A stretch of 40,299 bases of DNA from Escherichia phage UFJF_EcSW4, in the sequence record PP856269; one strand, 5' to 3'. The translations under genes were made by a program, and so were the position numbers. The notes beneath the pieces are model-generated. The model ran no database searches. It saw only the letters and a list, made by a program, of their open reading frames with translations, and was not told the DNA's origin. Below are positions 2,822 through 37,105 of the stretch, in pieces. Each line of letters opens with the position of its first letter. Position 1 is the first letter of the stretch.

Positions 2822-5503
2822 ATGAGCGTCATCTCTATTGATAAACACGACTTCTCTGATGTGTCTAACGCCATTGAGCCGTTTAACCTGCTGGCTGACC
2901 ACTACGGGCAAGACCTTGCAGTCAAACAGCTTCAGCTTGAGCATGAGGCATACACTGAAGGCGAGCGACGTTTCATCAAAAACCTTGAGCGACAGACTGA
3001 GCGCGGGGAACTGGCAGACAATCAGGTCGCCAAGCCTTTGATGCAGACTCTGGTTCCTAAGATTGCGCAAGCCGTCAAGGAGTGGCACGAAGGTCCAGAC
3101 GGGAAGCTGTCAACCTCACGTCCGAGCGTAGCGTTCACCATGTTAAGCACTGAAGAGAAGGCCGTTAAAGACCGCTCTCTACGCATCTCCTGTGAGTCTG
3201 CTGCGGTCATCATACTGAAGGTCATACTCTCCAAGCTGGTCAAGCCTGAAGGTATACCGATTACACCGATGGCCTCCGCGATAGGTCGCACACTTGAGGA
3301 TGAAATCCGATTCGGTCGCATTCGTGACAAGGAGAAGGAGCACTTCAAGAAGGCGATAGCTGAGAACTTGAACAAGCGAGCTGGGGCATCCTACAAGAAA
3401 GCCTACATGCAAGCGGTCGAGGCATCCATGCTGGAGCAAGGCCAACTGGAAGATGCGTGGGGGAATTGGAGTCCTACAGAGGCTGTCCACGTTGGCATCA
3501 AGATGCTTGAGATTATCATCCAGTCGACGCAACTGGTCGAGCTTAAGCGCTACGGTGCTGGCAATGCAGCGGCTGACGTTGAGATGGTCCACCTGTCAGA
3601 CTTCTGGGTCAAGAAGATGGCACAACGCGGCTTTAGCCTTGCGGGTATCGCCCCAGTCTACCAACCTTGCGTCGTTCCACCTAAGCCGTGGACTGGTGTC
3701 GTAGGCGGTGGGTACTGGGCCAAAGGTCGCAGACCTCTACCACTGATTCGCTTAGGGTCTAAGTCTGCGGTAGCACGTTACGAAGATGTGTATATGCCTG
3801 AAGTATATGACGCTGTTAACATCATCCAGAATACACCTTGGAAAGTAAACAAGAAGGTTCTGGACGTGGTGAACATGGTCGAGAAGTTGAACAACACGCC
3901 TATTGATGATATCCCTCAGATGGAGCCACTGAAGCCTGAAGACTATGCAGGTGAGACTGAAGAGGAACTCAAGGCATGGAAGAAGGCTGCTGCTGGTATC
4001 TACCGCCGAGAGAAGGCCCGGCAGTCACGTAGATTGTCACTGAGCTTTATCGTTAACCAAGCGAACAAGTTCTCTCAGTTCAAGGCCATCTGGTTCCCGT
4101 ACAACATGGACTGGCGCGGTCGCGTCTACGCTGTGCCGATGTTCAACCCTCAGGGTAACGACATGCAAAAGGGTCTCCTGACTCTGGCAGTCGGTAAGCC
4201 TATTGGTGCTGATGGTTTCAAATGGCTGAAGGTCCACGGTGCAAACTGTGCGGGTGTCGATAAAGTCACCTTCGAGGAGCGCATCAAGTGGGTGGAAGAC
4301 AACCACGACAACATCATGGCTGCTGCTAAGGCACCGATGGATAGCATTGAGTGGTGGGGCAAGTTAGACTCTCCTTTCTGCTTCCTTGCGTTCTGCTTCG
4401 AGTATGCTGGCGTGATGCACCACGGATTGTCTTACTCCTGCTCGCTGCCGATAGCATTCGATGGGTCCTGCTCTGGGATTCAGCACTTTAGCGCGATGCT
4501 TCGTGATCACATCGGTGGACATGCAGTAAACCTGACGCCTTCCGGTAAGGTCCAAGACATCTACCGCATCGTGTCTAACCGCATTGAGGAAGAGCTTAAA
4601 GTCCTGCTGGTTAACGGCACGGACAACGAGATGGTAACTCACGAGGACAAGAAAACTGGTGAGATTACCGAGCGTCTCAAGCTGGGGACACGAGAGCTGG
4701 CCCGTCAGTGGCTGACCTACGGTATGTCACGAAAGGTCACTAAGCGTTCGGTCATGACTCTGGCCTACGGGTCGAAAGAGTACGGCTTCGCAGACCAAGT
4801 TTACGAGGACATCGTGATGCCAGCGATTGACTCAGGGTCTGGCGCTATGTTCACTGAACCAAGCCAAGCATCTCGCTTCATGGCTAAGATGATTTGGGAA
4901 GCTGTGAGTGTGACCGTAGTTGCTGCGGTTGACGCGATGAAATGGCTTCAGGGTGCTGCCAAGCTGCTGGCGGCTGAAGTGAAGGACAAGAAGACGGGTG
5001 AAATCCTGAAGCCTTGCCTTCCGGTACATTGGGTCACACCTGATGGGTTCCCGGTCTGGCAGGAATACCGCAAGAAGGATACCACTCGTCTGAACCTGAT
5101 GTTCTTAGGGTCCTTCAACCTTCAACCTACCGTCAACAAAGGTACTAAGAAAGAGCTGGACAAGCACAAGCAGGAGTCAGGCATTAGCCCGAACTTCGTC
5201 CACTCACAAGATGGTAGCCACCTCCGCAAGACTGTAGTCCATACTCACCGCAAGTATGGCGTGATGTCGTTCGCAGTGATTCACGATAGCTTCGGGACCA
5301 TCCCGGCTGACGCTGAGTATCTGTTCCGTGGGGTCCGTGAGACTATGGTCGAGACATACCGCGACAACGATGTGCTGCTTGACTTCTACGAGCAGTTTGA
5401 ATACCAGCTTCACGAGAGCCAGCGCGATAAGTTGCCAGAGCTTCCGAAGAAAGGTAAACTGAATATCGAAGACATCTTGTCTTCAGACTTTGCATTCGCT
5501 TAA
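2822..5503 (+). CDS. 1: Single-subunit DNA-directed RNA polymerase (T7 RNAP family)
   Basis: 893 aa; blocks such as PFCFLAFCFEYAGV, SCSGIQHFSAMLRD, RSVMTLAYGSKE..., HDSFGTIPADA and the C-terminal FAFA match T7/T3 RNAP recalled from memory. Confidence 0.97.
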   Translation: MSVISIDKHDFSDVSNAIEPFNLLADHYGQDLAVKQLQLEHEAYTEGERRFIKNLERQTERGELADNQVAKPLMQTLVPKIAQAVKEWHEGPDGKLSTSRPSVAFTMLSTEEKAVKDRSLRISCESAAVIILKVILSKLVKPEGIPITPMASAIGRTLEDEIRFGRIRDKEKEHFKKAIAENLNKRAGASYKKAYMQAVEASMLEQGQLEDAWGNWSPTEAVHVGIKMLEIIIQSTQLVELKRYGAGNAAADVEMVHLSDFWVKKMAQRGFSLAGIAPVYQPCVVPPKPWTGVVGGGYWAKGRRPLPLIRLGSKSAVARYEDVYMPEVYDAVNIIQNTPWKVNKKVLDVVNMVEKLNNTPIDDIPQMEPLKPEDYAGETEEELKAWKKAAAGIYRREKARQSRRLSLSFIVNQANKFSQFKAIWFPYNMDWRGRVYAVPMFNPQGNDMQKGLLTLAVGKPIGADGFKWLKVHGANCAGVDKVTFEERIKWVEDNHDNIMAAAKAPMDSIEWWGKLDSPFCFLAFCFEYAGVMHHGLSYSCSLPIAFDGSCSGIQHFSAMLRDHIGGHAVNLTPSGKVQDIYRIVSNRIEEELKVLLVNGTDNEMVTHEDKKTGEITERLKLGTRELARQWLTYGMSRKVTKRSVMTLAYGSKEYGFADQVYEDIVMPAIDSGSGAMFTEPSQASRFMAKMIWEAVSVTVVAAVDAMKWLQGAAKLLAAEVKDKKTGEILKPCLPVHWVTPDGFPVWQEYRKKDTTRLNLMFLGSFNLQPTVNKGTKKELDKHKQESGISPNFVHSQDGSHLRKTVVHTHRKYGVMSFAVIHDSFGTIPADAEYLFRGVRETMVETYRDNDVLLDFYEQFEYQLHESQRDKLPELPKKGKLNIEDILSSDFAFA

Positions 5504-5733: not shown

Positions 5734-5807
5734 CAGACCTACAGTTACTGGCCTTGTGGCTAGGAGCACTCGCAGTATTCACTTTAATCCAACGCAGAAG
5801 AGGTTAA

Positions 5808-5830
5808 CCTAAACTATCACTATAGGATTA
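5808..5830 (+). promoter_or_regulatory. Phage RNAP promoter (phi1.1-position)
   Basis: CCTAAACTATCACTATAGGATTA; +1 at 5825. Confidence 0.75.
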
Positions 5831-5870
5831 GACTCAAGGTCATGACTCAACGTCGTGGCCTTCATGATTA
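5828..5870 (+). promoter_or_regulatory. Conserved RNA element, candidate RNase III processing site (R1.1-position)
   Basis: TTAGACTCAAGGTCAT-N-TGGCCTTCATGATTA; AAGGUCA (5836-5842) can pair with UGGCCUU (5856-5862) including one G-U; two further copies at 13355 and 37006. Confidence 0.4.
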
Positions 5871-5900
5871 ACCCTAATAAACTACTGGAGATTTAACCAT

Positions 5901-6080
5901 ATGTATCAGAACACTATCAACTTCGAGCGAATCCGTGAACGTCAGCAGACTGAAGGTTACATTCCGAAGGGCCGCAAGCTGAACAAGACCAAGCGCGGCG
6001 GTGGTGTCAAGGGTGCTTTCCGTAACGCTGAAGGCAAAGACTCTCTGGTCAACCAAGAGAAATACTTCGTAGGAGCATAA
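5901..6080 (+). CDS. 1.1: gp1.1-like small basic protein, 59 aa
   Basis: MYQNTINFERIRERQQTEGYIPKGRKLNKTKRGGG...; the GRKLNKTKR motif matches T7 gp1.1 from memory; below the ORF-track cutoff. The minus-strand track ORF 5874-6083 is its shadow. Confidence 0.6.
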   Translation: MYQNTINFERIRERQQTEGYIPKGRKLNKTKRGGGVKGAFRNAEGKDSLVNQEKYFVGA

Positions 6081-6084
6081 CACT

Positions 6085-6348
6085 ATGGGCCGACTTTATA
6101 GTGGCAACCTCAACGCTTTCAGAGCAGCGTGTAACAGGCTTTATCAGTTAGACTTCGCTGTCATATCTCAGGAGTTTCAAGACTATACGTCACGCCAAGA
6201 GTGTATGAAACTCAGGGTCGAGGACCTAGCTGGTAACATCTTCGCGCTTGAGACCTTCGCACATTACGATGAAGACGTGCTGTATAACACTGCAACAGAC
6301 TACATCAACGGTCTCGCTGACCAACTCGACACATGGAGCAAAGCATAA
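6085..6348 (+). CDS. 1.2: gp1.2-like host dGTPase inhibitor
   Basis: MGRLYSGNLNAFRAACNRLYQLDFAV... matches T7 gp1.2 (MGRLYSGNLAAFKAATNKLFQLDLAV...). Confidence 0.8.
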   Translation: MGRLYSGNLNAFRAACNRLYQLDFAVISQEFQDYTSRQECMKLRVEDLAGNIFALETFAHYDEDVLYNTATDYINGLADQLDTWSKA

Positions 6349-7463: not shown

Positions 7464-7500
7464 AACCCAGTGGTCTTAGGACTGCTGGGTTTCTTTGCTT
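7464..7500 (+). terminator. Intrinsic terminator after the ligase gene (TE-position)
   Basis: AACCCAGTGGTC ttag GACTGCTGGGTT: 12-bp stem with two G-U pairs and a tetraloop, followed by TTCTTTGCTT. Confidence 0.55.
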
Positions 7501-10970: not shown

Positions 10971-11186
10971 ATGATTAAACTTATCGAATTTCTTGGTCGT
11001 CTGGTGGTGCGTGGCTATCGTCGTGCTGCGGTTCTGGAACGAAAGGTAGAAAAGAAGACTGCTGACGGTGCGGCTGATGCTGCTGCTCTGGCTGACAAGC
11101 TGACCATCGCGTCACTGGAAGCTGGCATGAAGGCACGTCAGGCTGACACCAAGGCTGACCAGTTGTCTCAGTTCTTCAAAGACTAA
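10971..11186 (+). CDS. Hypothetical protein, 71 aa
   Basis: ORF with SD (aagggagaatagctca ATG); its stop TAA lies inside the following promoter. Confidence 0.5.
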   Translation: MIKLIEFLGRLVVRGYRRAAVLERKVEKKTADGAADAAALADKLTIASLEAGMKARQADTKADQLSQFFKD

Positions 11187-11204
11187 ACTATCACCTTAGG
11201 GATG
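11182..11204 (+). promoter_or_regulatory. Phage RNAP promoter variant (CACCTTAGG; gene 4 promoter position)
   Basis: ACTAAACTATCACCTTAGGGATG; two mismatches in the -4/-3 region, so probably weaker. Confidence 0.45.
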
Positions 11205-11254
11205 GGACCATGAGTCCTGTCCCTTTGTTCGCATTTGTGACTAAGGAGTGACCG

Positions 11255-11434
11255 ATGGTTACAGTTATTCTAGTTCTAACGCTTATCAGTGGTAGTGGGC
11301 AAACTATCAGCCAAGTACCTATAACAGCACCAACATTACAGGACGCATTCACAATATGTGACCAGTCCGGCTCAAAGTGGGCCGACAAGTTTGGCGATGT
11401 CTCAAACGTTGCAGCAGGGTATGAGTGTATTTAA
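11255..11434 (+). CDS. Possible small protein, 59 aa, hydrophobic N-terminus
   Basis: MVTVILVLTLISGSG...; preceded by TAAGGAGTGACCG ATG, almost the same 13-nt SD context that precedes the primase gene at 11445. Confidence 0.35.
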   Translation: MVTVILVLTLISGSGQTISQVPITAPTLQDAFTICDQSGSKWADKFGDVSNVAAGYECI

Positions 11435-11441
11435 GGAGTGA

Positions 11442-13145
<1,704 letters not shown>

Positions 13146-13187: not shown

Positions 13188-13352
13188 GTGTTAAAGAAAC
13201 TTAAAGCTCGATACCACATGTTCATGTACAAATGGTGGAGCGATGAAGCAACCTGCCTGTCGAACATTCTGGGAGACCAGCGGTTCAACTCTGAGGCATG
13301 GAAGAAAGCTAACCGGAAGTTCATGTATCACTTCTTGCGTACAGACTTCTAG
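13188..13352 (+). CDS. Possible small protein, 54 aa (gene 4.3/4.5 position), GTG start
   Basis: GGAGGA followed at 6 nt by GTG; VLKKLKARYHMFMYKWWSDEATCLSN...; below the track cutoff; start uncertain. Confidence 0.3.
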   Translation: MLKKLKARYHMFMYKWWSDEATCLSNILGDQRFNSEAWKKANRKFMYHFLRTDF

Positions 13353-13354
13353 GT

Positions 13355-13395
13355 CTAGACTCAAGGTCATTCACAGCGAGTGGCCTTTATGATTA
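13355..13395 (+). promoter_or_regulatory. Conserved RNA element, candidate RNase III processing site (R4.7-position)
   Basis: CTAGACTCAAGGTCATTCACAGCGAGTGGCCTTTATGATTA; second copy of the element seen at 5828 and 37006. Confidence 0.4.
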
Positions 13396-13420
13396 GACTT
13401 ATAACTAAAGGAGAAGCAAT

Positions 13421-13852
13421 ATGAGGACTTGTAGTAGATGTGGCTATACAAAGGAGTCCACTGAGTTCAGGAAGACAAATGGGTGGTGCATATCCTGTGT
13501 TCGTGAGGATAATAGGTCGCGATATCATCGAAACAAAGGTACAGAGGCCGGTGAGGCACATCGCCTATCTGCCCGTAAGTCTTGGCTTAAGAAAGCCTAT
13601 GGTCTCACACTTGAGGAATATGACACTATGTTCGATAGTCAAAAGGGCAGATGCGCTATATGCTCAGACATTATCTTCAAGCATGGGTCTATTGAGAGTA
13701 AGAATAATGTAGCCCACGTTGACCATTGCCATGACTCAGGTATTGTTAGGGGATTGCTATGTGGTACATGTAATAGCGCACTTGGTAAGTTCGGTGACAA
13801 GTTAGCCGTGCTTAGGGCTGCTATAGCGTACTTGGAGAAATATAATGTTTAA
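13421..13852 (+). CDS. Endonuclease VII-type (HNH superfamily) nuclease
   Basis: 143 aa with CxxC...HVDHCH...GLLCGTCNSALG, the zinc/His-Me signature of the T4 endonuclease VII family. Confidence 0.75.
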   Translation: MRTCSRCGYTKESTEFRKTNGWCISCVREDNRSRYHRNKGTEAGEAHRLSARKSWLKKAYGLTLEEYDTMFDSQKGRCAICSDIIFKHGSIESKNNVAHVDHCHDSGIVRGLLCGTCNSALGKFGDKLAVLRAAIAYLEKYNV

Positions 13853-18288: not shown

Positions 18289-18414
18289 TTTACTGGGCCG
18301 GACTTCTGGCCCTTTACTGCATGTACAAGTGGTTCGGGTCGAACAACCGCCCTAAACACTGAGTCTAACCGATAGTCATATCCTATCAATCCAACAGTCA
18401 TCCATAGGTGAAAC

Positions 18415-18437
18415 ACTAAACTATCACTATAGGGACT
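18415..18437 (+). promoter_or_regulatory. Phage RNAP promoter (phi6.5-position)
   Basis: CACTAAACTATCACTATAGGGACTT; +1 at 18432. Confidence 0.75.
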
Positions 18438-18498
18438 TTAGGACCTAAGATATGACTATAAGATAGACTTTAGTCTTAACTTAAAGAGGAGATTCAAG

Positions 18499-18771
18499 AT
18501 GGCTATTAATGCTATTGAAAACGTTGTTAAGCAGTTACAGGAAGAAAGACTTGATGTCCCGAACATCTCACAGTCTGCTATCCAGTTCCTGCACGTATTG
18601 TTCAACGCAAGCTACGCTGAGAAGATGGGAGTTATCAGTCTCCTCAAGCAGCAAGGCTACAGCGATGCGTTCATTGCCGGGTTCATCAAGGGTCTCCAGT
18701 ATTGTTCTGACACTCTCGACTCTGCGATTGCTATGCGTCGTGAGCTGAAAGATACCGTTCAGTTTGATTAA
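18499..18771 (+). CDS. Hypothetical protein, 90 aa (gene 6.5 position)
   Basis: Strong SD (aaagaggag); assigned by position only. Confidence 0.55.
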   Translation: MAINAIENVVKQLQEERLDVPNISQSAIQFLHVLFNASYAEKMGVISLLKQQGYSDAFIAGFIKGLQYCSDTLDSAIAMRRELKDTVQFD

Positions 18772-22231: not shown

Positions 22232-22254
22232 ACTAAACTATCACTATAGGGAGA
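22232..22254 (+). promoter_or_regulatory. Phage RNAP promoter (phi10-position; full TATAGGGAGA initiation region)
   Basis: ACTAAACTATCACTATAGGGAGACC; +1 at 22249; the closest match to a strong class III promoter. Confidence 0.85.
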
Positions 22255-22356
22255 CCAAGAGAAAGACTCAAGGTTTCCCTATTACTTCAGTCCATACGGA
22301 TTGGGCGTACAGTAAGTAATAAACTTTATCTTTCAATTGAATAGGAGAATTATCAT

Positions 22357-23406: not shown

Positions 23407-23669
23407 CGACCTTTAAGGCCCTCTCTACAGAGGGTCCTACCTTAGAGACGTACAGTTCTACGGTGGGGACCAGCCTGAAGGTTGACTTCCCTGAGCTTTC
23501 AGATGTGACCGACTGGTCGCTGCTTGATGTTACTACGCCTGATGGTGTTAGTTACTCCCGTAGAACCAACAGTCTCTACTTCAAGGCCACCTCTGGCGTG
23601 GAAGGTCTAGTGATTGTTGAGTATGACGGTTCGCCTGTGCGTTCCTTCAACGTATCTTTCACAAACTAA
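22357..23669 (+). CDS. 10: Predicted minor capsid protein (10B-type), made by a -1 ribosomal frameshift near 23379-23385 (GGTTTTC)
   Basis: The -1 frame is open from 23331 to 23669, overlapping the last 25 codons of 10A; GGTTTTC lies 8 codons before the 10A stop, and the T7 10A C-terminus has the same ...VVF motif; gives a roughly 95-aa extension. Not computed beyond reading the frames. Confidence 0.45.
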
Positions 23670-23673
23670 TTGA

Positions 23674-23713
23674 AACCCCTTGGGTGCCTTCGGGTGCTTG
23701 AGGGGTTTTTTTG
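23674..23713 (+). terminator. Tphi-like transcription terminator
   Basis: AACCCCT tgggtgccttcgggtgcttg AGGGGTT then TTTTTTG; same architecture and location (after the capsid gene) as T7 Tphi. Confidence 0.8.
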
Positions 23714-23727
23714 CTTAAGGAGGGACT

Positions 23728-23817
23728 ATGGTCCTTATTTACACAGGGTTAGCACTATTCGTCTTATTCTGGGCGTACCTTCTGTCCAGCTCACCGTCTA
23801 GTGCCTATGACCGTTAA
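23728..23817 (+). CDS. Possible 29-aa hydrophobic peptide between Tphi and gene 11
   Basis: AAGGAGGG then ATG at spacing 5; MVLIYTGLALFVLFWAYLLSSSPSSAYDR; very short, may be spurious. Confidence 0.2.
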   Translation: MVLIYTGLALFVLFWAYLLSSSPSSAYDR

Positions 23818-26990: not shown

Positions 26991-27014
26991 CTTATTGAAT
27001 GGCCTATAGATTTA

Positions 27015-27037
27015 CCTTAACTATCACTATAGGGACT
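27015..27037 (+). promoter_or_regulatory. Phage RNAP promoter (phi13-position)
   Basis: CCTTAACTATCACTATAGGGACT; +1 at 27032. Confidence 0.75.
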
Positions 27038-27066
27038 ATAGGCCCTTAAGGTTATAAGGAGACTTT

Positions 27067-34360: not shown

Positions 34361-36391
34361 ATGTCCACGATTACACAATTCCCTTCAGGAAGCACTCAGT
34401 ACAGGATTGAGTTCGACTACCTAGCCAGAACGTTTGTTGTTGTTACGCTGGTGAATAGCTCTAACCCTACCCTGAACCGTGTACTGGAAGTTGGTCGAGA
34501 TTACCGATTCCTTAATCCAACGATGATTGAGATGTTGGTTGACCAATCAGGTTTCGACATCGTTCGCATTCACCGTCAGACTGGAACTGACTTAGTGGTA
34601 GACTTCAGGAATGGCTCAGTGTTGACAGCTAGTGACCTGACAAATTCAGAGCTTCAGGCTATCCATATTGCAGAAGAAGGTAGAGACCAAACGGTTGACT
34701 TAGCGAAGGAATATGCCGATGCTGCTGGTAGCTCTGCTGGCAACGCTAAGGATAGCGAGGACGAAGCACGACGAATCGCTGAGAGTATCAGGGAGGCTGG
34801 TCTAATTGGTTATATTACCCGTCGCTCCTTCGAGAAAGGCTACAACGTTACAACATGGAGCGAGGTCCTGCTATGGGAAGAGGATGGTGATTATTACCGC
34901 TGGGATGGTACGCTTCCAAAGAACGTTCCTGCTGGTTCAACTCCTGAAACTTCCGGTGGGATTGGATTAGGTGCGTGGGTTAGTGTTGGTGATGCTGCTT
35001 TAAGAAGTCAGATTTCAAACCCGGAAGGGGCAATACTCTACCCAGAATTACAGATGGCACGCTGGCGAGATGAGGGCGATGTTCGCGGATGGGGTGCTAA
35101 AGGTGATGGTTCTGCGGATGATACAGAGGCTTTCAAGGCAGCACTGGCAACAGGAAAGAATCTATATATCCCCGTTGGTATATACATCATTAAAGAGACT
35201 TTGTACTTTAAGAACCAAGTTATTAAAGGTGGGGGAATATCTCCATCACCAAGTCTTGGTACAATCCTAGCAATCTCTCACAATGAAGCAGCTTTTAAGT
35301 ATGACGTTAACTCTGGATACTCCATGGGTGGCTACTTAGGCGGTTTCTTCATTGATTATGGTGAGAACAAGCCAGACAACTATGGTGGTCGCAAAGGTAT
35401 TGATATTGGTGATGCATCGCAGACAGTATGGCCTTCACAATTTATCATTGAGAACATCATAGTACGTGGTGCGTACTTTGGTATTCATGACGTGACAGGG
35501 GCTTTTCAGTATACCATGCGTAACGTATTGGCGATTAATTGCTGGGAAGGTTTCCGTAAGCATATTGGTACTACAGTCCTAATGGATACATGCTACGCAC
35601 TTAATTGTTATCAGGCGTTCAATTTTGCAAACGTGTACAACATGACTATGAACAATTGTGCAATGGACGGCTGTAATGATATACAAGGTCTACAGGCTTT
35701 TGATATTAACAACTGTAAAGGTATGGTAATAAATGGCATGTACAGCGAGAACTGTGAGATTCATCATAATGGACATGCCTCTATATATATTCATGGGGAC
35801 TCAACAGTAACACTTAACGGATATGCACTACATTCCCACAAAGTTCTGGCTAGTTCTGGGGAGGCTTACTTCTTACGAGCACATGAAAGTTCTCGCGTTA
35901 CTGTTGATGGTATCTTCTTCGGGGAAGACCTGACGTCTACTGCTGTATTCATGTACCCAGTCCTGTCTTCTGGGGATGCTAGAGTTCAGCTTGGAACTAC
36001 TAGATTGAAGTTGTGGACTGGTGCTACGGGTGGCGCGTCACTGGCTGCACTAGGTAACAGTTTGATTGAGTATGACAACACAGTCTTTGTTCCAACAGTC
36101 ACGGTCGGATGGTGTAGCAACAACGGAGTTGTAGCCAAAGGTACTCTTGCAGTTAACACTACGCTTGAACCAGGTGCTGACCTGAATGCTGGTAATATCA
36201 CCCTCACTGGTGACTACAAGCCAACTAAGGGGGATGTGCTTGTGTATGGTGCTACCTTTGATGTTAAGTCATGTTCAATTATTCTCAAGCCAATAGGGGA
36301 GAATTTATGTAATGTGTACATTAAGAACTTAAGTGCAGGTGGTAGTGCTACTCTTCTTGGTGACTTGATGGTACAGGCCATCCGACGCTAG
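34361..36391 (+). CDS. 17: Tailspike/tail fiber: T7 gp17-like N-terminal adaptor plus pectate-lyase-type beta-helix (putative polysaccharide depolymerase) domain
   Basis: N-terminus (YRIEFDYLARTFVVVTL...DYRFLN...LVVDFRNGSVLTASDL...AIHIAEEGRD) matches the T7 gp17 N-terminal domain; from about residue 240 GWGAKGDGSADDTEAFKAAL...LYIPVGIY is the classic start of a right-handed beta-helix glycanase. Confidence 0.9.
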   Translation: MSTITQFPSGSTQYRIEFDYLARTFVVVTLVNSSNPTLNRVLEVGRDYRFLNPTMIEMLVDQSGFDIVRIHRQTGTDLVVDFRNGSVLTASDLTNSELQAIHIAEEGRDQTVDLAKEYADAAGSSAGNAKDSEDEARRIAESIREAGLIGYITRRSFEKGYNVTTWSEVLLWEEDGDYYRWDGTLPKNVPAGSTPETSGGIGLGAWVSVGDAALRSQISNPEGAILYPELQMARWRDEGDVRGWGAKGDGSADDTEAFKAALATGKNLYIPVGIYIIKETLYFKNQVIKGGGISPSPSLGTILAISHNEAAFKYDVNSGYSMGGYLGGFFIDYGENKPDNYGGRKGIDIGDASQTVWPSQFIIENIIVRGAYFGIHDVTGAFQYTMRNVLAINCWEGFRKHIGTTVLMDTCYALNCYQAFNFANVYNMTMNNCAMDGCNDIQGLQAFDINNCKGMVINGMYSENCEIHHNGHASIYIHGDSTVTLNGYALHSHKVLASSGEAYFLRAHESSRVTVDGIFFGEDLTSTAVFMYPVLSSGDARVQLGTTRLKLWTGATGGASLAALGNSLIEYDNTVFVPTVTVGWCSNNGVVAKGTLAVNTTLEPGADLNAGNITLTGDYKPTKGDVLVYGATFDVKSCSIILKPIGENLCNVYIKNLSAGGSATLLGDLMVQAIRR

Positions 36392-36744: not shown

Positions 36745-37004
36745 CGCAGATGGACTTAGAGAAGTTCCTATTGATGCTTGATACTGAGCGTGCTCGACTT
36801 ATGCTGCAAGACTTGCGGGATGACACTAAGCGTTCACCTCAACTCTACAACGCCATTGAGAAGCTACTGGCTCGTCACAACTTTGTGTTAAGCAAGGTGT
36901 CTGTTGACGAGAAGACGCTCGCTGATATGGAGGCCCTGAACGCAGAGTACGATAAGGTGCTCTCCGCTACGGAAGATAATGACACCGGGTATGGTGTTCA
37001 GTAA
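36741..37004 (+). CDS. 18: Terminase small subunit (DNA maturation protein A)
   Basis: FLLMLDTERARLMLQDL...RSPQLYNAIEKLLARHNF matches T7 gp18. Confidence 0.88.
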   Translation: MTQMDLEKFLLMLDTERARLMLQDLRDDTKRSPQLYNAIEKLLARHNFVLSKVSVDEKTLADMEALNAEYDKVLSATEDNDTGYGVQ

Positions 37005-37005
37005 G

Positions 37006-37050
37006 TGTTAGACTCAAGGTCATTACTATATGTAGTGGCCTTTATGGTTA
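37006..37050 (+). promoter_or_regulatory. Conserved RNA element, candidate RNase III processing site (R18.5-position)
   Basis: TTAGACTCAAGGTCATTACTATATGTAGTGGCCTTTATGGTTAA; third copy of the element at 5828 and 13355. Confidence 0.4.
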
Positions 37051-37105
37051 ACACTAACTAGTGGAGGAGACTCTACGTGAAATCTGATAAACCGGGAGGG
37101 CAACT

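Follow-up and report, generated by a model that had tools for sequence, protein, structure and literature searches.

What is the ~43-nt element that directly follows a phage promoter at positions 5,808 to 5,870 of Escherichia phage UFJF_EcSW4 (sequence record PP856269), and that returns twice further along the same DNA? The window analyzed here is the whole 40,299-base stretch, which is a complete-length T7-family phage genome of the K1F type (Kayfunavirus) with all of its large ORFs on the + strand and in T7 gene order. The 2-kb stretch around the first copy has matches in 299 phage records and shows 94-95% identity to Escherichia phages phiYIO1-1 and MirsaeidiM_Esher2. A preliminary description had proposed that the element occurs three times, at the positions of the T7 RNase III cleavage sites R1.1, R4.7, and R18.5. 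The repeat is genuine: the pattern CAAGGTCAT-N(8-20)-TGGCCTT is found exactly three times in the whole window (5835-5862, 13362-13387, and 37015-37042), always on the + strand, versus 0.00 matches expected by chance in 100 dinucleotide-preserving shuffles. The 16-mer TTAGACTCAAGGTCAT is present with 0 mismatches at 5828-5843 and 37008-37023, and with 1 mismatch (CTAGAC...) at 13355-13370. The starts first given for copies 1 and 2 (5828 and 13355) were therefore right, whereas copy 3 begins at 37008 and not at 37006. The variable stretch between the two conserved halves, originally put at 12-14 nt, is 12, 10, and 12 nt long in copies 1, 2, and 3, respectively, when counted from GGTCAT to TGGCCTT.

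The assignment to the R1.1, R4.7, and R18.5 positions was borne out by a PHROG scan of the neighboring genes and by the annotation of phage T3, which places sites at the same junctions. The order around copy 1 is RNA polymerase gene, small ORF, phage promoter, copy 1, gene 1.1-like ORF (5901-6080), and the gene for gp1.2, the dGTPase inhibitor. Ahead of copy 2 are the primase/helicase gene and a small ORF; after it come an endonuclease VII-like ORF and then the DNA polymerase gene. Copy 3 has the small terminase gene (gp18) on its 5' side and the Rz-like spanin gene (gp18.5) on its 3' side. The endonuclease VII-like ORF (13421-13852), which encodes 143 amino acids, is absent from K1F, and divergence from K1F begins 1-2 nt past the 3' end of that hairpin; this ORF looks like a mobile endonuclease insertion. 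A sigma-70-like 9/12 match inside copy 2 (13370-13399) was discarded, as shuffled sequences give as much.

The promoter in front of copy 1, a match to TAAACTATCACTATAGGA, is one of 11 such matches on the + strand, with 0.02 expected. By analogy with T7 and T3 promoters, its +1 base would be G5825, and the base of the copy 1 hairpin would thus be where transcripts start. The arrangement is the same in T3, where the annotated promoter phi1.1 overlaps the start of R1.1. Another promoter match, TTAACTATCACTATAGGA with 1 mismatch, lies within 2732-2758, ~70 nt before the start of the phage RNA polymerase gene (2822-5503), and ACTCAAGGTC, which corresponds to the 5' half of the RNase III-site motif, comes directly after it. 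This stretch is near-identical in K1F and does not form a convincing hairpin (fold z -0.5). Unlike this genome, T7 and T3 have no annotated phage promoter before gene 1. The match could provide positive autoregulation of the polymerase, or it may be a decayed promoter-plus-site module. Three further landmarks expected of a T7-type genome are present: the ligase gene is followed by a TE-like intrinsic terminator (7464-7491), the phi10-position promoter by an immediately adjoining 5' leader hairpin (within 22243-22282), and the capsid gene by a Tphi-like terminator that has a U-run (scan window 23668-23737).

When folded with its flanks, each copy forms a single irregular hairpin composed of a lower stem, an asymmetric internal loop, an upper stem of 10-11 bp, and a 5-nt loop (Table 1). 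The internal loop is conserved among all copies, with ACUC on the 5' side and yAUGr on the 3' side, and the lower stem of copy 2 begins at the stop codon of the ORF at 13188-13352. Both the MFE and the centroid folds of the three copies match those of T7 R1.1, R4.7, and R18.5. RNA folding of each copy had been suggested as a check on the proposal; it revealed a conserved stem, with z scores from -4.4 to -5.0, and this stem is further supported by covariation (see below). The pairing of AAGGUCA with UGGCCUU, including one U.G, was correctly foreseen, yet it accounts for only the lower part of the upper stem. The variable stretch, previously regarded as the loop, is in fact mostly stem: three to four of its bases pair on each side, which leaves a loop of 5 nt, and these paired bases differ among the copies (GAC/GUC, UC/GA, and UAC/GUA). 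The full structure is larger than the ~43-nt element and has its lower stem outside those limits.

Table 1. Hairpins of RNase III-site type, candidate hairpins, and the promoter next to copy 1 in the window. Fold gives kcal/mol and z; CM gives the covariance model score and E value.
Feature	Coordinates	Strand	Description	Fold	CM
Copy 1, R1.1-position hairpin	5823-5876	+	11-bp upper stem, loop UCAAC, internal loop ACUC/CAUGA, lower stem	-19.7, z -4.4	61.1 bits, E 5e-13
Copy 2, R4.7-position hairpin	13350-13401	+	10-bp upper stem, loop ACAGC, internal loop ACUC/UAUGA	-21.1, z -4.95	68.1 bits
Copy 3, R18.5-position hairpin	37000-37059	+	11-bp upper stem, loop UAUAU, internal loop ACUC/UAUGG	-25.6, z -4.97	66.4 bits
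Phage RNA polymerase promoter, phi1.1 position	5810-5827	+	TAAACTATCACTATAGGA match		
R0.3-position hairpin, diverged	1290-1348 (CM match 1287-1351)	+	ACUACAGGUC...GGCCUGACUGAUAG	-23.8, z -4.45	32.6 bits, E 1.4e-5
R0.5-like-position hairpin, diverged	2022-2076 (CM match 2017-2087)	+	ACGAGAGGUCAUC...GGUGGCCUCAAAGAUU	-20.8, z -3.6	36.8 bits, E 1e-6
Weaker candidate hairpin	970-1028 (CM match 964-1034)	+	same architecture	z -3.1	17.7 bits, E 0.12
R3.8-like hairpin	11198-11235	+	11 bp; from the fold of 11180-11260 and alignment with the T3 R3.8 region and T7		

The T7 transcripts carry ten sites that are cut by host RNase III, although T7 grows without the enzyme (PMC6938266). R1.1 RNA, the standard E. 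coli RNase III substrate, undergoes a single phosphodiester cut (PMC4858673); where an internal loop is present, only one strand is cleaved, and the RNA is protected by the hairpin left at its 3' end (PMC1540722; PMC3867540). The reactivity epitopes of the E. coli enzyme, as defined by Pertzev and Nicholson in 2006, are a helix at least 11 bp long that separates the cut site from the loop, a proximal box of G-C/A-U/A-U with U.C at pb4 in R1.1, a middle box of U.G/C-G, and a distal box of U.G/U-A (PMC1540722). Distal-box substitutions weaken binding of a minimal substrate (PMC1540722). In copies 1, 2, and 3 of the window, the corresponding helix comprises 12, 11, and 12 positions including pb4. 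Copies 2 and 3 agree with the epitopes at every proximal, middle, and distal box position. Copy 1 agrees in the proximal and middle boxes and has G-C instead of U-A at one distal-box position; because substitutions in this box weaken binding, copy 1 may be cut less efficiently. The pb4 position is C.U or C.C in the window copies, as in T7 R1.1 and R4.7, and in none of them is it G-C.

Applied to T7, a rule that places the cut between ...AU and G gives positions 1468, 5887, and 36856. These values match the cleavage coordinates reported for T7 (Dunn and Studier 1983). By analogy, single cuts are predicted after U5865 (CAU/GAUU, the slash marking the cut), U13390, and U37045. The three copies are very probably T7-type RNase III processing signals on the + strand of a K1F-like phage, for which we infer cleavage itself, the exact cut position, and effects on mRNA stability and translation.

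In the mechanism that we propose, each copy would fold into its irregular hairpin within polycistronic phage transcripts, and host RNase III would bind the helix of about two turns by contacting the upper-stem base pairs of the proximal, middle, and distal boxes. The enzyme would then cleave one strand only, on the 3' side of the internal loop, presumably because this loop distorts the helix. The upstream mRNA would be left ending in a hairpin that shields it from 3' exonucleases, while the downstream mRNA would start with a 5'-monophosphate G and would carry genes 1.1/1.2 after copy 1, the endonuclease-like ORF and gene 5 after copy 2, and genes 18.5/19 after copy 3. A full-text literature search for work joining RNase III and Kayfunavirus found nothing. 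Among the early ORFs in positions 1-2822 of the window, we did not find a gp0.7-type protein kinase; none of these ORFs exceeds 167 amino acids, and their only matches are to an ocr-like family and to families without an assigned function. This phage would therefore lack the T7 route by which phosphorylation stimulates RNase III.

We built a covariance model from the three window copies and six T7 sites, with a consensus of 18 pairs, 9 of which show compensatory changes in this nine-site seed alignment. On T7, the model recovered the unseeded R6.5 and gave a weak match to R1. On T3, from which no site had been seeded, it recovered 8 of the 10 annotated stem-loops and gave no other match at E<1; the two that it missed, R3.8 and R13, are both structurally different. 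A motif scan of IMG/VR returned 80 loci; the sites upheld by the model, 78 in all, were confined to contigs of T7-like size. Exact-motif matches in large contigs unrelated to T7 were treated as chance, and the model did not confirm them.

In the alignment of the 78 sites, 94.5% of pair cells hold standard pairs, compared with 26-50% in slid controls, and changes on both sides were seen in 15 of the 18 pairs. The covariation score is 0.49, versus 0.12 or less in the slid controls, and this value was reached by none of 500 shuffles. Covariation is seen in the lower stem and in the uppermost pairs of the upper stem. In contrast, AAGG/CCUU is invariant in the 73 distinct sites, which had been retrieved by means of the motif, and the unpaired bases of the internal loop (ACUC and yAUGA) are near-invariant and form the best conserved part. 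Apparent sequence conservation is inflated, because the IMG/VR loci were fetched with the motif itself and the alignment was fitted to the model, so that the counts lean toward structure; the covariation of the lower stem, however, is not created by fetching with the motif. We also considered homogenization of the three copies within the genome, on account of the UUAGAC/GAUUAA top of the lower stem that they share. This explanation is not needed, because UUAGAC/GAUUAA is also the family-wide consensus, as judged from T3 R0.5 and R1.1 and from the column counts.

The initial count of three sites stood for the exact motif, but the window contains more sites of the same kind (Table 1). One diverged hairpin is directly upstream of the ocr-like gene 0.3 and was for this reason assigned to the R0.3 position; another lies between small early ORFs at an R0.5-like position. 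Both have counterparts in K1F. A weaker candidate, whose status as an RNase III-type hairpin is uncertain, is found upstream of the first early ORF and has a K1F counterpart scoring 21.4 bits. All three early hairpins share the architecture of the main copies with a diverged core, ACUACAGG..CC...GGCC.UGACUGAUAG and ACGAGAGGUC...GGCCUCAAAGAUU, and they resemble T7 R1 more than R1.1. They are probably the early-transcript RNase III sites of the genus.

Directly after a promoter-like site at 11184-11201 is an R3.8-like hairpin, followed by CCCUUUGUUCGCAUU. The sequence CCCTTTGTTCGCATT after this hairpin is common to the R3.8 site of T7 and, nearly, to that of T3. The covariance model did not detect it and likewise missed the R3.8 sites of T7 and T3; we consider it a likely R3.8 counterpart. 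Counterparts of R1, R1.3, and R6.5 were not convincing: the folds of 2720-2825, 6270-6345, and 18405-18505 have z scores of -0.5, +0.7, and 0.0, and the model gave no match in these regions. A 70-nt MFE scan of the whole + strand added no T7-type site, and it is unspecific in that many coding windows score equally. At 27001-27044, upstream of gene 13, a 9-bp stem of GGCCUAUAG and CUAUAGGCC encloses the promoter at 27017-27034, an arrangement like that of the T3 R13 stem-loop, which overlaps promoter phi13, although the two have no sequence similarity. The non-coding left end, upstream of the early genes, contains a very stable + strand hairpin at 263-326 (-29.5 kcal/mol; 12-bp lower stem, 3/3 internal loop, 6-bp upper stem), which the RNase III model did not detect.

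Other explanations of the repeat were weighed against processing by RNase III. The elements might mainly be DNA palindromes that form single-stranded DNA hairpins in replication or recombination, as signals or as module-exchange joints, perhaps sensed by host defenses. In V. cholerae, death that depends on Lamassu DdmABC is indeed triggered by a cloned T7 RNase III-site palindrome and by similar palindromes from a T7-like vibriophage, whichever way they are oriented, yet the same study states that no DNA role is known for RNase III-site structures (PMC11707656). Copy 1 folds nearly equally well on both strands (-18.0 kcal/mol on the - strand, -19.7 on the + strand), whereas copies 2 and 3 fold ~10 kcal/mol worse on the - strand (-10.0 and -15.7 kcal/mol). 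The conserved U.G pairs, found in 63 of 73 sequences at columns 24/69 and in 41 of 73 at columns 27/66, become C.A mismatches on the other strand. Moreover, conservation is highest in the unpaired, asymmetric internal loop, a feature for which a plain DNA hairpin would have no need, and all copies lie in the sense orientation in transcribed intergenic gaps. A role mainly as DNA is consequently very improbable, even though the homology of many related genomes stops at the 3' edge of the hairpin, some matches cover the hairpin only, and the endonuclease-like ORF that K1F lacks starts right after copy 2. With a copy 1 query (5805-5900), many related genomes match only query positions 1-73, i.e., up to the hairpin edge at 5877; with a copy 3 query (36990-37075), many Klebsiella phage records match the hairpin alone (query 13-65, corresponding to 37002-37054). 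Thus, because many relatives match only up to or within the hairpin, the conserved hairpins often sit at homology breakpoints. In addition to RNA processing, the hairpins might act as shared recombination joints for module swaps within the T7 family, and as a liability sensed by Lamassu/DdmABC. We regard this addition as unlikely, and the hints for a DNA-level role of the hairpins are weak.

A different possibility is that RNase III, or another double-strand RNA-binding protein, binds the elements without cutting them, in which case they would be regulatory operators or stabilizing hairpins. The departure of copy 1 from the canonical distal box would fit such a role, but its internal loop is that of T7 R4.7, a site described as strong for cleavage. 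Copies 2 and 3 have the exact boxes of the efficiently cleaved T7 R1.1, and their pb4 position is non-Watson-Crick rather than the G-C catalytic antideterminant; we therefore rate binding without cleavage as a slim prospect. Stable, G+C-containing hairpins in intergenic gaps are also what one would look for in transcription terminators or pause hairpins, for either the host or the phage RNA polymerase. However, no T-run follows any of the three copies, a terminator scan that picked up the TE-like hairpin at 7464-7491 made no call overlapping them, the Tphi-like terminator and its U-run lie elsewhere (within 23668-23737), and the conserved internal loop has no role in termination, which together leave termination with almost no probability. 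That the repeat is a chance match or a functionless recent duplication, for which only its being a repeat speaks, is just as remote. No matches are expected by chance, the same sites occupy the same junctions in K1F, T7, and T3, similar sequences occur in 222 GenBank phage records for the copy 1 region and in 693 for the copy 3 region, and the stems show compensatory covariation; conservation and covariation have already refuted this last explanation.

The three repeats, read as RNase III processing signals, are the textbook T7/T3 hairpin element in a K1F-like genome and are of an already known kind; the finding is therefore real but ordinary, and it implies no new biology. Its value lies mostly in annotation, as the element is widespread in hundreds of T7-family genomes and mostly unlabeled. 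In the sampled entries from the 222 and 693 GenBank matches to the copy 1 and copy 3 regions, none names an RNase III site. Rfam has no curated family covering T7-type RNase III sites: a search of the whole window at the gathering threshold returned nothing, and a search of the copy 1 region at E values up to 10 returned only a spurious 9-bit match to STnc150. A covariance model of the kind used here would let pipelines mark the sites automatically. Marked sites would help to predict where mRNAs start and end, and how stable they are, in K1F-like phages that are engineered or meant for therapy, and would also flag palindromes that hairpin-sensing defenses may recognize.

The closeness to T7 extends from sequence to genome position. 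In T7, AAGGTC...GGCCTT occurs at 1441, 5861, 6421, and 13867, with variants at the other sites. The reported coordinates of R0.3, R0.5, R1.1, R1.3, R4.7, and R18.5 (Dunn and Studier 1983) all fall at the same relative place in ACTCAAGG..C...GG..CTTyATG. The window copies have the core of the experimentally mapped T7 sites, ACUCAAGGUC ... GGCCUUyAUGr; more generally, ACUCAAGG(U/C)C...GG(C/U)CUUyAUGr is common to the window copies and the T7 sites, as are the hairpin architecture, the strand, and, for R1.1, R4.7, and R18.5, the gene junctions. In its upper stem and internal loop, T7 R1.1 is base-for-base identical to copy 2. The internal loop of T7 R4.7 equals that of copy 1, and the UAUGG variant of copy 3 is also that of R18.5 in both T7 and T3. 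The differences from T7 are modest in extent: the hairpin loops have 5 nt in the window and 4 in T7, the upper stems of copies 1 and 3 are longer by 1 bp, and the lower stems differ in sequence with pairing kept. Relative to T7 R1.1, copy 1 has G-C at one distal-box position. A single promoter precedes copy 1, whereas phi1.1A and phi1.1B flank T7 R1.1. Finally, the window has no R1.3 or R6.5 counterpart detectable with the covariance model, and it has no gp0.7 kinase.

Because the T7 records NC_001604 and V01146 carry no annotated RNase III features, we used the annotated T3 genome (GenBank AJ318471) as a reference; it lists ten stem-loops as "RNase III recognition site." T3 R1.1 (6003-6053) starts within the last part of promoter phi1.1 and comes before gene 1.1, R4.7 (12970-13018) is upstream of gene 5, and R18.5 (35038-35088) lies between genes 18 and 18.5, which are the junctions of copies 1, 2, and 3, respectively. 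In contrast to T3, an endonuclease VII-like ORF separates the R4.7-position site of the window from gene 5. Compared with the ten sites annotated in T3, the window has six that are detectable with the covariance model, plus the R3.8-like hairpin.

K1F, the type species of Kayfunavirus, carries no such annotation and has the same six matches to the model at the same junctions as the window. Its three main copies are near-identical to those described here, with one loop base differing in the R1.1 copy. Unlike in the window, gene 5 of K1F directly follows the R4.7-position hairpin.

The rRNA precursor stems of the cell and rncO are mostly long regular duplexes in which both strands are cut. These cellular and lambda substrates are cut by the same host enzyme and likewise require about two helical turns (PMC1540722; PMC3867540). 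The phage sites differ from them in carrying an internal loop that limits cleavage to one strand.
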